A stretch of DNA of 32,517 nucleotides from a virus (IMGVR_UViG_2718218100_000008), one strand, 5' to 3'; shown: positions 1 to 32,517, numbered from the stretch's first letter. The notes: generated by a model not told the origin, from the sequence alone. Numbers and translations: made by a program.

Positions 1-1143
1 CTATGCTGTTTTGATATCTACGATAATCCAGTCTTTACCACGATCATCATTGTATCGGTCGGTCATTTTTCTGGATTTATGACCTAACAACTTTTGCGTA
101 TCCAGACCCTGTTCCCGATATAACCGTTCTGACAGAGATCGCTGCTCATGAAATGTGGGCGCAGTTCCTTGCTCCCATTTTATGCCACATTTTTCCCTGG
201 CCTTTTTAAAAGCCGTTGTAAGAGTATTTGCAGACACCTGGTCTCCTCTGTTTGCTTGAGAGGTAGTGTGACGGTAATGGACCAGATATTTACTAACAAC
301 AGCATCCCTGCACTGAGATATAACTTCACGAAGGGTAATATTCAGAGCATCGCATTTCAGGTTAAGCGGAATAGCAAGTTTTGAACCGGTTTTTTCCTGA
401 GTAATGTGCAACATGTCGTCCCAGATATCAGAGAATTTCAAATTGCAGATATCGCTTAAACGTTGTCCAGTGACAAGAGCAAGTAGCATCCCGCATTTTA
501 AATAGGGCTGCCGTCTGCTTACGCTGTCAAATATTGCCTGCCATTCGGGCAGTGATAATCTTTGGCGGTTTACTCGATTTCGCGGTTGTTTTGTTGCCTG
601 CGCTGGGTTAAATCCTGGCGGAACATGTCCTGCGTGTTGTGCTTCTTTGAAGACGTCGATCAACACCATTCTCACGACTTGCGCCATCCTGTTATGACCT
701 TCAGCCTTTACAGCATCAATTATTTCGGCAATATCAAGTGCGGTAATATCCTTGAGGTGTTGCATTCCACAATGCTCACGGAAAAGACGGATGGGTTTGC
801 CTTTTTGCCGATAGGAGTTGGGTCTTAGTTCATTATGTTGCAGCCTGTCCTCCTGGATAGAATTATATTTATCAAGCCATTCTGTCACCGTAATGTCTGA
901 GCGCCTGCCTTTCATTCTTTCCAGACGCTCATTGACGCTTAATATTTGTCGGGTACGTTGTTCAGCAATAATGGTATTTGCTTCAGTAGCAACTTGTTTT
1001 GCTTCATTCTCATCAGTTCCTAAGCTATGAAAACGACCGGATAGTGGATGTTTGTATTGCCAATATACCTTTCCGGTTCGCTTATCTAATTTGCAATATA
1101 AATTGGGTATAGAGATTTTGTGAGATCGGGGGCTAGCAGCCAT
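1..1143 (-). CDS. int: Phage tyrosine integrase (site-specific recombinase), complete; stop codon at window positions 1-3
   Basis: 380-aa ORF; C-terminal catalytic region shows the H-x-x-R (TFHEQRSLSERLY) and terminal Tyr (KSRKMTDRY) pattern of tyrosine recombinases; 11-bp overlap with the upstream excisionase-like ORF; sits at the prophage end. Confidence 0.9.
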   Translation of the reverse strand: MAASPRSHKISIPNLYCKLDKRTGKVYWQYKHPLSGRFHSLGTDENEAKQVATEANTIIAEQRTRQILSVNERLERMKGRRSDITVTEWLDKYNSIQEDRLQHNELRPNSYRQKGKPIRLFREHCGMQHLKDITALDIAEIIDAVKAEGHNRMAQVVRMVLIDVFKEAQHAGHVPPGFNPAQATKQPRNRVNRQRLSLPEWQAIFDSVSRRQPYLKCGMLLALVTGQRLSDICNLKFSDIWDDMLHITQEKTGSKLAIPLNLKCDALNITLREVISQCRDAVVSKYLVHYRHTTSQANRGDQVSANTLTTAFKKAREKCGIKWEQGTAPTFHEQRSLSERLYREQGLDTQKLLGHKSRKMTDRYNDDRGKDWIIVDIKTA

Positions 1144-1369
1144 CAGCGATTATCCGTTGGAGTTTTGGGTTTGCGTTTATTGGGAGTTGCGGTTCTGCAA
1201 GCGTTCCTACAAAACGGGAATTTCGGTCAATCATCCAGTAGCGACCAACTTTTATAGCGGGTGGGGCCATCATTTTCCCTTGCGCGTATTTTTTCAGAAC
1301 TCGCTCACTTGGTGCTAAGTCCCCAAATTCTTCTTTAGCCCAGTCCCGTAAAGTGATTAGTCGAGACAT
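1133..1369 (-). CDS. xis: Excisionase-like small DNA-binding protein
   Basis: 78-aa ORF directly upstream of and overlapping int on the same strand, the classic xis-int arrangement; family assignment from recalled similarity to lambdoid prophage excisionases. Confidence 0.7.
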   Translation of the reverse strand: MSRLITLRDWAKEEFGDLAPSERVLKKYAQGKMMAPPAIKVGRYWMIDRNSRFVGTLAEPQLPINANPKLQRIIADGC

Positions 1370-1472
1370 TTGTCCTCCTCTTAGCTGCTGAGGGAGTTTG
1401 TGACCGATATATCTGACATGATATTAAGCTCATGGCAGGTACATCTCTTGACTGGTCATAGAGATAAATTTA

Positions 1473-2297
1473 ATGCTGAGAAATGCAGTATTGAATTTAT
1501 CAATTTTTCACCAGCTTCTGGTCTTTCTGGCTGTCATGCGCAAAACATATGGCTTTAATAAAAAACTGGATTGGGTTAGCAACGAGCAACTTTCCGAATT
1601 AACCGGGATATTGCCGCACAAGTGTTCTGCTGCAAAAAGTGTTCTGGTAAAGCGTGGGATTTTTATTCAGAGCGGGCGGAATACCGGCATTAATAATGTG
1701 GTCAGTGAATGGTCAACATTACCCGAATCAGGTAAGAAAAATAAAGTTTACCTGAAAGAGGTAAATTTACCTGAATCAGGTAAAAAAAGTTTACCCAAAT
1801 CAGGTAAAGGCGTTTACCCGAATCAGGTAAACACAAAAGACAAACTAACAAAAGACAATATAAAACCTTTTTCGTCCGAGAATTCTGGCGAATCCTCTGA
1901 CCAACCAGAAAACGATCTTCCTGTGGTGAAACCGGATGCTGCAATTCAGAGCGGCAGCAAGTGGGGGACAGCAGAAGACCTGACCGCCGCAGAGTGGATG
2001 TTTGACATGGTGAAGACCATCGCGCCATCAGCCAGAAAACCGAATTTTGCAGGGTGGGCTAACGATATCCGCCTGATGCGTGAACGTGACGGACGTAACC
2101 ACCGCGACATGTGCGTGCTGTTCCGCTGGGCATGCCAGGACAACTTCTGGTCCGGTAACGTGCTAAGTCCGGCCAAACTCCGCGACAAGTGGACCCAGCT
2201 CGAAATCAACCGTAACAAGCAACAGGCAGGCATGATAGCCAGCAAACCAAAACTCGACCTGACAAACACTGACTGGATTTACGGGGTGGATTTATGA
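1473..2297 (+). CDS. O: Replication initiation protein O; C-terminal half matches lambda O as recalled, N-terminal iteron-binding part diverged and apparently shortened
   Basis: 274-aa ORF; C-terminus (TKDNIKP...NFAGWANDIRLMRERDGRNHRDMCVLFRWACQDNFWSGNVLSPAKLRDKWTQLEINRNKQQAG...TDWIYGVDL) matches lambda O; an in-frame TGA at 1449-1451 prevents any upstream extension; stop overlaps the P start (ATGA). Confidence 0.85.
   Translation: MLRNAVLNLSIFHQLLVFLAVMRKTYGFNKKLDWVSNEQLSELTGILPHKCSAAKSVLVKRGIFIQSGRNTGINNVVSEWSTLPESGKKNKVYLKEVNLPESGKKSLPKSGKGVYPNQVNTKDKLTKDNIKPFSSENSGESSDQPENDLPVVKPDAAIQSGSKWGTAEDLTAAEWMFDMVKTIAPSARKPNFAGWANDIRLMRERDGRNHRDMCVLFRWACQDNFWSGNVLSPAKLRDKWTQLEINRNKQQAGMIASKPKLDLTNTDWIYGVDL
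1719..1831. repeat. Replication origin iterons: five direct repeats of a ~19-bp palindromic unit (TTTACC-N7-GGTAAA) inside the O gene, followed by an A/T-rich block (1832-1870)
   Basis: Repeat copies read at 1719-1735, 1747-1765, 1766-1784, 1790-1808 and 1813-1831; lambdoid origins are known to lie inside O as iterons followed by an AT-rich unwinding region. Confidence 0.8.
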
Positions 2298-3361: not shown

Positions 3362-3694
3362 ATGAACCCTTATATTTATCTTGGTGGTGCAATACTTGCA
3401 GAGGTCATTGGTACAACCTTAATGAAGTTTTCAGAAGGTTTTACACGGTTATGGCCATCTGTTGGTACAATTATTTGTTATTGTGCATCATTCTGGTTAT
3501 TAGCTCAGACGCTGGCTTATATTCCTACAGGGATTGCTTATGCTATCTGGTCAGGAGTCGGTATTGTCCTGATTAGCTTACTATCATGGGGGTTTTTCGG
3601 CCAACGGCTGGACCTGCCAGCCGTTATAGGCATGATGTTGATTTGTGCCGGTGTGTTGGTTATTAATTTATTGTCACGAAGCACACCACATTAA
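3362..3694 (+). CDS. emrE: Small multidrug resistance (SMR) efflux transporter EmrE
   Basis: 110-aa product MNPYIYLGGAILAEVIGTTLMKFSEGF...LLSRSTPH matches E. coli EmrE as recalled; four hydrophobic helices; first in-frame ATG chosen at 3362 (the ORF-track start at 3308 is an upstream extension). Confidence 0.9.
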   Translation: MNPYIYLGGAILAEVIGTTLMKFSEGFTRLWPSVGTIICYCASFWLLAQTLAYIPTGIAYAIWSGVGIVLISLLSWGFFGQRLDLPAVIGMMLICAGVLVINLLSRSTPH

Positions 3695-3938: not shown

Positions 3939-5465
3939 ATGAAAAAAGCCATAGCATATATGCGATTTTCATCACCAGGTCAGATGTCTGGCGACTCATT
4001 AAACCGACAGAGAAGACTTATTGCTGAATGGTTAAAGGTAAATAGTGATTATTATCTTGATACCATAACATATGAAGATTTAGGATTAAGTGCATTCAAA
4101 GGAAAGCATGCACAATCAGGAGCTTTTTCGGAATTTTTAGATGCTATAGAGCATGGTTATATATTGCCAGGAACTACATTGTTAGTTGAAAGTCTGGACA
4201 GACTTTCAAGAGAAAAAGTCGGTGAAGCGATTGAACGTCTGAAATTGATTTTGAATCACGGTATTGATGTTATAACTCTTTGCGACAATACAGTCTATAA
4301 TATTGACTCTTTGAATGAGCCATATTCATTAATAAAAGCCATACTTATAGCACAAAGGGCAAATGAAGAAAGCGAGATAAAGTCAAGTCGGGTTAAATTA
4401 TCATGGAAGAAAAAACGGCAGGATGCACTGGAATCAGGTACGATTATGACGGCGTCTTGTCCGAGATGGCTCTCCTTAGATGACAAAAGAACGGCTTTTG
4501 TTCCAGACCCCGACAGGGTGAAAACTATTGAGCTAATTTTTAAACTCAGGATGGAAAGGCGCTCATTGAATGCAATAGCCAAGTATTTAAATGATCATGC
4601 TGTAAAGAATTTCTCAGGAAAAGAAAGTGCATGGGGGCCTTCTGTAATTGAAAAATTATTAGCGAATAAAGCTCTGATAGGTATATGCGTACCTTCATAT
4701 CGTGCAAGAGGGAAAGGGATAAGTGAAATCGCTGGCTATTATCCCAGAGTCATATCAGATGATTTGTTTTACGCTGTACAGGAAATTCGGTTGGCACCTT
4801 TTGGTATTAGCAATAGTAGCAAGAATCCTATGCTAATAAATCTACTTCGAACAGTTATGAAGTGTGAGGCTTGTGGTAATACCATGATTGTTCATGCGGT
4901 ATCTGGAAGTTTGCATGGCTATTATGTTTGTCCGATGAGAAGATTACATCGATGTGACAGGCCATCAATAAAGAGAGATTTGGTTGATTATAATATCATT
5001 AATGAATTGCTTTTTAATTGTAGCAAAATTCAACCAGTTGAAAACAAGAAAGATGCTAATGAAACTTTAGAGTTAAAAATTATTGAGCTTCAGATGAAAA
5101 TTAATAATTTAATCGTTGCATTGTCTGTCGCGCCTGAAGTTACCGCTATAGCAGAGAAAATAAGACTATTAGATAAGGAATTACGAAGAGCTTTGGTATC
5201 ATTGAAAACTTTGAAGAGTAAAGGTGTAAATTCATTCAGTGATTTTTATGCTATTGACTTAACCAGTAAAAATGGACGAGAGTTATGCCGTACACTTGCC
5301 TATAAAATATTCGAAAAAATCATAATTAATACGGATAATAAAACCTGTGATATCTATTTTATGAATGGCATTGTTTTTAAACACTATCCTTTAATGAAAG
5401 TAATATCCGCCCAGCAGGCGATAAGTGCTCTCAAATATATGGTTGATGGTGAGGTTTATTTTTGA
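3939..5465 (+). CDS. ybcK: Large serine recombinase (resolvase/invertase-type N-terminal catalytic domain plus recombinase domain and zinc ribbon)
   Basis: 508-aa ORF; N-terminal motif AIAYMRFSSPGQ with candidate catalytic Ser; later Cys cluster CEACGN...YYVCPMRRLHRCD typical of large serine recombinase zinc ribbons; AT-rich codon usage; same emrE-adjacent position as ybcK in DLP12. Confidence 0.85.
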   Translation: MKKAIAYMRFSSPGQMSGDSLNRQRRLIAEWLKVNSDYYLDTITYEDLGLSAFKGKHAQSGAFSEFLDAIEHGYILPGTTLLVESLDRLSREKVGEAIERLKLILNHGIDVITLCDNTVYNIDSLNEPYSLIKAILIAQRANEESEIKSSRVKLSWKKKRQDALESGTIMTASCPRWLSLDDKRTAFVPDPDRVKTIELIFKLRMERRSLNAIAKYLNDHAVKNFSGKESAWGPSVIEKLLANKALIGICVPSYRARGKGISEIAGYYPRVISDDLFYAVQEIRLAPFGISNSSKNPMLINLLRTVMKCEACGNTMIVHAVSGSLHGYYVCPMRRLHRCDRPSIKRDLVDYNIINELLFNCSKIQPVENKKDANETLELKIIELQMKINNLIVALSVAPEVTAIAEKIRLLDKELRRALVSLKTLKSKGVNSFSDFYAIDLTSKNGRELCRTLAYKIFEKIIINTDNKTCDIYFMNGIVFKHYPLMKVISAQQAISALKYMVDGEVYF

Positions 5466-31936: not shown

Positions 31937-32517
31937 TGGCATTCAGAATGAGTGAACAACCACGGACCATAAAAATTTATAATCTGCTGACCGGAACTAA
32001 TGAATTTATTGGTGAAGGTGACGCATATATTCCGCCTCATACAGGTCTGCCAGCAAACAGTACCTATATTGCACCGCCAGATATTCCGGCTGGCTTCGTG
32101 GCTGTTTTCAACAGTGATGAGTCATCGTGGCATCTCGTTGAAGATCATCGGGGTAAAACGGTTTATGACGTGGCTTCCGGCGACGCGTTATTTATTTCTG
32201 AACTCGGCTCATTACCGGAAAATGTTACCTGGTTATCGCCGGAAGGGGAGTTTCAGAAGTGGAACGGCACAGCCTGGGTGAAAGATGCAGAAGCAGAAAA
32301 ACTGTTCCGGATCCGGGAGGCGGAAGAAACAAAAAACAGCCTGATGCAGGTAGCCAGTGAGCATATTGCGCCACTTCAGGATGCTGTAGATCTGGAAATC
32401 GCAACGGAGGAAGAAACCTCATTGCTGGAAGCCTGGAAAAAGTATCGGGTGTTGCTGAACCGTGTTGATACATCAACTGCACCTGATATTGAGTGGCCTG
32501 TAATACCTGAAGTTTAA
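31936..32517 (+). CDS. tfa: Tail fibre assembly chaperone Tfa, complete; stop codon at the window end
   Basis: 193-aa [56 protein letters not shown]... matching the lambda Tfa family as recalled; TAATG overlap with stf. Confidence 0.9.

Follow-up and report, generated by a model that had tools for sequence, protein, structure and literature searches.

Gene order and prophage context

The DNA analysed here, referred to as the window, is a stretch of 32,517 nucleotides from a virus (IMGVR_UViG_2718218100_000008), numbered from its first letter. At its left end lie an integrase gene (1-1143, minus strand) and the excisionase gene xis (1133-1369, minus strand), now directly beside a gene O that lacks its 5′ end (1509-2297, plus strand). 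This truncated O contains an array of five repeats, followed by an A/T-rich block. Gene P, which encodes the helicase loader, comes next on the plus strand (2294-2995); it is intact and 98% identical to lambda P. It is followed by ren, an emrE multidrug efflux gene (3362-3694) and a large serine-recombinase-like ORF, and emrE occupies the same place in phages PhiR34_1 and 4A7. The recombinase ORF itself (3939-5465, 508 aa) is intact in the window and in Escherichia coli O157:H7 Sakai (ECs_1615), and is annotated as frameshifted in strain TR01. Near the far end of the window, the Rfam family IS009 has a full-length match on the plus strand (32279-32477; 229 bits, gathering score 117), within a region annotated as a tail-fibre N-terminal gene.

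By its sequence, the window is a prophage of Sp8 type, inserted at icd in E. coli O157:H7. It matches many O157:H7 chromosomes at 100% identity, and in these the integrase adjoins icd. The Sakai counterpart is annotated as 'prophage Sp8; lambda-like phage' and differs from the window at one base over the first 12 kb; the name Sp8 is also used for the icd prophage elsewhere (PMC10925052). Over the first 19.8 kb there are seven mismatches between the window and Sakai Sp8, and register is then lost from about 19870, in the tail gene region. This loss of register points to an indel or a replaced segment, and the window therefore derives from an O157:H7 strain other than Sakai.

Truncation of gene O by a deletion

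That O is shortened had been noted earlier, and the cause can now be placed at a deletion junction at position 1509, with loss of O residues 1-47. The two sides of the junction share 1 bp; the left side lies just past xis and the right side lies within O. In a phage genome search, window positions 1370-1509 were identical to the stretch just past xis in phages such as Lambda_2E9. Positions 1509-1900 were 100% identical to the internal part of gene O of PhiR34_1, a deposited phage with K-12 as its listed host, and 98% identical to 4A7, Perceval, 1W, 3W and others, all of which are deposited complete phage genomes. Intact O is annotated at 339 aa, and the lambda-equivalent start (MANTAE..., preceded by GGAGG) gives 309 aa. 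On the latter numbering the truncated gene comprises codons 48-309, so that a partial DNA-binding domain remains, together with the linker encoded by the iterons and a C-terminal domain of lambda type. Twelve foreign codons from beside xis (MLRNAVLNLSIF; 1473-1508, plus strand) are fused in frame to O codon 48. The fusion yields an ORF of 274 aa (1473-2297, with its ATG at 1473), which corresponds to ECs_1611 in Sakai and is called O′ below.

The extent of the loss is apparent from phage 4A7, in which the undeleted order is icd fragment, int, xis, DUF4222 gene, exo, recT, gam and kil, then cI, cro, a cII/YdaT gene, O, P, ren and the emrE-like gene. Relative to 4A7 about 7.1 kb is missing (4A7 coordinates 30286 to 37372), from gp36 through gp50 together with the 5′ end of O. 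The window prophage has thus lost the repressor and immunity region, pL and pR, cro and cII, as well as O codons 1-47.

The product of the 1473-2297 ORF still matches the Pfam family Phage_rep_O (PF04492; E = 3e-19), with profile positions 28-95 of 95 covered in the truncated protein and positions 1-95 in intact O. The match extends to O′ residue 80 (SEW), with the array beginning three codons on, so that the repeats sit between the DNA-binding N-terminal part and the partner-binding C-terminal domain of a Phage_rep_O family gene. No solved structure matching O by sequence was found. AlphaFold2 applied to an intact O relative placed helices at residues 27-43, 47-61, 72-79 and 83-95, followed by a beta hairpin at 99-108; the N-domain so predicted has the secondary structure of a winged helix. 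The model was built from a shallow alignment of 15 sequences (mean pLDDT 47; 66-81 over residues 30-100), and was used for secondary structure only. With modest confidence, the deletion is predicted to remove helix 1 (residues 27-43) of the O DNA-binding domain.

The module left behind consequently falls short of a functional one in three respects: its DNA-binding domain is incomplete (Pfam positions 1-27 are gone), a promoter-like site upstream was not found when positions 1300-2400 were searched, and pR, cro and cII have been deleted. The cognate initiator is very probably non-functional in the window prophage, and the origin would be orphaned in cis, as had also been suggested, its O being truncated at 1509.

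The iteron array

A pattern scan for TTACC-N7-GGTAA returned exactly five matches in the 32.5-kb window, all within 1719-1830, and a repeat finder agreed. The 17-bp cores lie at 1719-1735, 1748-1764, 1767-1783, 1791-1807 and 1814-1830, with start-to-start spacings of 29, 19, 24 and 23 bp. Chance accounts for a mean of 0.03 such units in the window, and five were never reached in 100 dinucleotide-preserving shuffles. The array lies within the O-like ORF 1473-2297, in keeping with the preliminary description of five tandem units inside O. Every unit is dyad-symmetric, giving five tandem dyad-symmetric repeats of about 19 bp. A literature search for the iteron sequence returned nothing usable.

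Iteron 1 (ATTACCCGAATCAGGTAAG; 1718-1736) is an additional unit on the upstream side that both lambda and P22 lack, and is read in O frame 0 as LPESGK. The remaining four align in order with lambda iterons 1 to 4: iteron 2 (TTTACCTGAAAGAGGTAAA; 1747-1765) is read in frame 2 as VYLKEVN, iteron 3 (TTTACCTGAATCAGGTAAA; 1766-1784) in frame 0 as LPESGK, iteron 4 (TTTACCCAAATCAGGTAAA; 1790-1808) in frame 0 as LPKSGK, and iteron 5 (TTTACCCGAATCAGGTAAA; 1813-1831) in frame 2 as VYPNQVN. The 19-bp form TTTACC-N7-GGTAAA given in the preliminary description holds strictly for copies 2-5, while copy 1 has the 17-bp core only.

Related origins give the class consensus TTTACC(C/T)GAATCAGGTAAA, with about 2 bits per arm position, a value that is partly circular as the instances were chosen by their arms; the column count from the MAFFT alignment described below is free of this. 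The gap between the arms is 7 bp in all five window units and in all units of 58 related origins. Unit number changes by whole units among related origins, with four units in two contigs and seven in two others. Such whole-unit changes among near-identical origins are consistent with the pattern expected from unequal exchange between repeats.

Conservation of the repeats as DNA sites

The repeats lie in coding sequence, and the repetitive LPESGK/LPKSGK peptide of the O product had been attributed to them. This explanation holds for units 1, 3 and 4. Units 2 and 5, however, are read in another frame and yield VYLKEVN and VYPNQVN. The frame pattern 0,2,0,0,2 is kept in 53 of 58 distinct related origins. 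Since the units are read in two frames, it is the DNA that drives the peptide and not the reverse.

Conservation was counted in a MAFFT alignment of 54 distinct five-unit origins, taken from phage contigs with O N-domains of 83-100% identity. The arms were almost constant, with 5 of 50 columns variable and 1.3% of cells differing, compared with 18 of 35 columns (12% of cells) in the centres and 20 of 27 columns (30% of cells) in the spacers. Arms thus differ strongly from centres and spacers taken together (5/50 vs 38/62 variable columns; Fisher p = 1.7e-8). Flanking coding sequence was variable in 11 of 28 columns (20% of cells). The arms are conserved at all three codon positions, whereas the adjoining coding sequence varies freely. 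Use of two frames, combined with conservation of arms over centres and spacers, therefore identifies the repeat as a DNA site and not a coding repeat.

The A/T-rich block

Directly after iteron 5 lies a 36-bp block (CACAAAAGACAAACTAACAAAAGACAATATAAAACC; 1832-1867) of 72% A+T, with 64% A on the top strand, which is the presumed DNA-unwinding element. Local G+C dips to 0.30 here, against 0.45-0.6 on either side. An A/T-rich block after the array was part of the preliminary description, and the segment aligns with the A/T block of lambda. In a multiple alignment its core (ACACAAAAGACA..ACAAAAGA) is invariant across five origin types, namely those of lambda, P22, HK446, a Klebsiella phage and the window.

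Right after the A/T block lies the point at which one C-terminal partner module gives way to another (lambda P type, DnaC type or P22 gp12 type). The core of the block may double as a recombination joint for module swapping.

Relationship to other lambdoid origins

The window was aligned with the lambda iterons (NC_001416), the stretch annotated as rep_origin in P22 (OQ031658.1), HK446 and the Klebsiella phage. Column for column, units 2-5 match the register of lambda iterons 1-4, and the A/T block that of its lambda counterpart, with unit spacings of 19/24/23 bp in the window and 20/24/23 bp in lambda. The register is likewise kept with the P22, HK446 and Klebsiella phage origins. The lambdoid layout proposed for this locus is thus borne out. 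Lambda also shares the position of the array inside an O-family gene, the 19-bp dyad units, a near-identical O C-terminal domain and, as noted above, P. The differences lie in the units and in what surrounds them. Lambda has four iterons of the form ATCCCTC-N5-GAGGGAT (ATCCCTC..GAGGGAT) and a 40-bp A/T-rich region, whereas the window has five of the form TTTACC-N7-GGTAAA, a truncated initiator gene and a deleted pR. The units of the window read TTTACC(C/T)GAATCAGGTAAA and do not carry the consensus of the lambda specificity class (ATCCCTCAAAACGAGGGAT). Both parts of the earlier view, a non-lambda iteron sequence and a diverged O N-terminal part, are upheld, as the N-domain is only 49% identical to that of lambda O.

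Comparison with the known lambdoid origin types, which the preliminary description had recommended, sets the window apart from the arms of lambda and HK446 and brings it to the half-site of P22 at a wider spacing. On sequence comparison, the closest classical relative found would be the origin in P22 gene 18 (OQ031658.1), which has the same half-site (TTTACC/GGTAAA) and the A/T block, and an N-domain 59% identical to that of the window. In P22-type origins, however, only 5-6 bp separate the TTACC and GGTAA arms, against 7 bp here, so that the half-sites are 1-2 bp closer. P22 also differs in having four less regular units and a C-terminal domain that pairs with a DnaB-like helicase (gp12) and not with P. 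Among the origins retrieved with P22 gp18 none had a 7-bp arm gap, all having gaps of 5-6 bp. The last P22 unit is a hybrid (TTTACCGAATCAGTCAAA).

HK97/HK446-type origins have the same architecture and the same invariant A/T block. They differ in their half-site (TTAGCC/GGCTAA) and in an HK446 protein that is 31% identical over its whole length, with a more distant N-domain. Taken across types, arm sequence tracks the type of N-domain: the N7 arms go with the window type, the narrower arms with P22 gp18, TTAGCC with HK446 and ATCCCTC with lambda. The same units accompany N-domains 83-100% identical in phages of E. coli, Klebsiella and Salmonella, whatever the C-terminal partner. Three kinds of such partner module occur within the N7 class: the window has a lambda-type P, and the Klebsiella phage and the 284-aa proteins of E. 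coli and Salmonella go with a DnaC-type loader.

The origin of phage 82, reportedly described in 1979 by Grosschedl and Hobom and by Moore and colleagues, is said to combine non-lambda iterons with an O C-terminus and a P that are compatible with lambda. The nin region of the window prophage (ybcN-ninE-rusA-Q) is presumably of the kind reported for phage 82, and the iteron class of the window may be the one published for that phage in 1979-81. Both of the 1979 papers are cited in PMC5043065 and PMC6022878.

The Stx phages 933W and P27 are likewise lambdoid and carry extra upstream iterons (six in all), and their O is longer to match (PMC7466680). On a six-iteron Stx template the same four iterons are bound by lambda O (PMC7466680), and for this reason we treat 933W and P27 as lambda-type. 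Their origins have been studied biochemically, whereas the units of the window are not lambda-type and their class is known here by sequence.

Two further candidates were rejected as relatives. The Rac prophage genes ydaU/oriJ were considered in view of the YdaT gene upstream of intact O, but YdaU is an unrelated DUF1376 protein. Sp6 of Sakai was considered as a carrier of the same origin type, but it lacks such units and has an initiator of another family.

Distribution of the origin class

The intact O type was found in 2272 of 5426 complete E. coli genomes (42%), counted with the first 631 bp of intact O, array included, at a coverage of at least 80%. The corresponding O protein cluster has 7825 members. 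The truncated junction occurs in 295 genomes, and the best 25 of these 295 are O157:H7-type chromosomes. Among the records examined, none carried an origin annotation for the N7 class.

A scan of genome contigs for two adjacent TTACC-N7-GGTAA units gave one enterobacterial match, in Pseudocitrobacter, among the matches listed. The same listed matches included many Prevotella and Bacteroidales genomes in which paired TTACC-N7-GGTAA motifs recur every 44 bp, up to six in a row. These arrays occupy many loci per genome and are unrelated to O-family genes.

Proposed mechanism and present state of the origin

Taken together, we consider it highly likely that positions 1718-1867 are a genuine lambdoid origin of a non-lambda class, now a relic in a deleted Sp8-type prophage that probably has no working O. 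We infer O-driven initiation at this class of iterons entirely by homology with lambda, for which the O/P mechanism serves as the model (PMC5043065, PMC6022878, PMC7466680). In intact relatives, each dyad unit would be bound by O dimers, which use their N-terminal winged-helix domain and come together as an 'O-some'; this would strain and open the adjoining A/T block. The lambda-type C-terminal domain of O would then recruit P bound to the host helicase DnaB. In the window, the deletion of about 7.1 kb has left the cis site intact, the initiator damaged and rightward transcription gone; lambda-type origins need transcriptional activation in cis (PMC5043065), and the lost promoter is the one that serves both this activation and the expression of O. 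Such an orphan origin would be expected to stay silent as long as no phage of the same O type provides an initiator.

Experimental observations on Sakai are available for comparison. Asadulghani et al. scored the replication function of Sp8 as '+' in silico, from annotation (PMC2669165). In the experiments of the same study, circularisation, replication and packaging of Sp8 were all absent, whether or not mitomycin C was given (PMC2669165, Table 2). The truncation of O and the missing regulatory region account for the failure of Sp8 to replicate in Sakai, and the older '+' score appears to be an annotation artefact.

Alternative readings

The silence expected of an orphan origin might be broken from outside. 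In this alternative the origin is dormant but usable in trans, such that an O of the same specificity, provided by a co-resident phage or a superinfecting one, for example of the 4A7 type, either fires it or is titrated by it as a decoy. Opportunity would not be lacking, since an intact O type carried by so large a share of complete E. coli genomes (2272/5426) should make encounters frequent. Indeed, O157:H7 strain 10671 carries a truncated copy at 1.54 Mb and an intact-O prophage at 2.90 Mb, 1.36 Mb apart; a single N-domain residue distinguishes its intact O, whose iteron arms are identical. Lambda origins placed ectopically on plasmids are known to arrest lambda growth (PMC4488673, PMC3349717), and in Sakai replication of the regions that surround induced prophages has been observed (PMC2669165). 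However, these published decoy effects were obtained with multicopy plasmids, whereas the origin is present here as a single chromosomal copy. Moreover, pR and all rightward transcription into the origin have been deleted, although lambda-type origins require cis transcriptional activation (PMC5043065), and Sp8 in Sakai did not replicate after mitomycin C (PMC2669165). We consider this use in trans unlikely. Were it to occur, firing in situ would amplify the icd/Sp8 region and raise the dosage of the complete head, tail and lysis gene set of Sp8, making the amplified genes available to other defective prophages; as a weak chromosomal decoy, Sp8 would damp the replication of phages of this very common type.

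In the intact-O prophage of strain 10671 (2898674-2904304), a SIR2-family gene lies beside the repressor, and upstream of YdaT and O there is a YdaS-family gene with a frameshift.

A second alternative holds that the 274-aa O′ is still a working initiator, in which case the origin would not be orphaned and Sp8 would replicate itself. The O′ ORF is open and in frame from its ATG, P is intact, and Sakai annotates ECs_1611 as an ordinary 'phage replication protein'. O′ also keeps predicted helices 2-4 and the predicted helix-turn-helix, together with the wing, the linker and the lambda-type, P-binding C-terminal domain, and residual binding of O′ to the iterons is possible on this model. Against this, 12 unrelated residues stand in place of the first 27 of 95 Pfam positions, which are equivalent to predicted helix 1. 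The promoter search of 1300-2400 was negative, and a terminator-like hairpin with a T run (1463-1501, plus strand) in the xis-side sequence overlaps the ATG at 1473; this hairpin has only three G-C pairs, and the hairpin count lies within the range of shuffled sequence. The NCBI annotation pipeline PGAP marks 1509-2297 as a pseudogene 'missing N-terminus', and replication of Sp8 was absent in experiment (PMC2669165). A functional O′ is, in our assessment, very improbable.

Finally, the repeats might be kept only for a repetitive peptide linker in O, as their LPESGK-like products and the predicted disorder of this region could suggest, or be chance palindromes with no role as DNA, but this is hardly credible for a dyad-symmetric unit that gives two unrelated peptides in two frames, keeps its arms at all codon positions while neighbouring coding sequence varies, is expected only 0.03 times in the window by chance, and occupies the position of the lambda iterons, whose binding by O has been demonstrated experimentally (PMC7466680). 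Coding-only conservation, which the preliminary description had named as grounds for abandoning its reading, is contradicted by the same frame and conservation results.

Implications

On the preferred reading, that of a relic lambdoid origin of a non-lambda class, the Sp8-type prophage of O157:H7 would lack a working initiator, despite its annotation in Sakai and its '+' score in the survey, which amounts to a correction of annotation. The analysis also defines an iteron class, TTACC-N7-GGTAA, usually of five units, for one of the commonest O types of E. coli. As the same half-site stands 1-2 bp closer together in P22, the P22 and window classes form a natural pair for asking how O-family initiators read the spacing of half-sites. 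The understanding of lambdoid replication is unchanged, the array being probably an ordinary origin whose class is widespread, distinct from that of lambda and related to that of P22.
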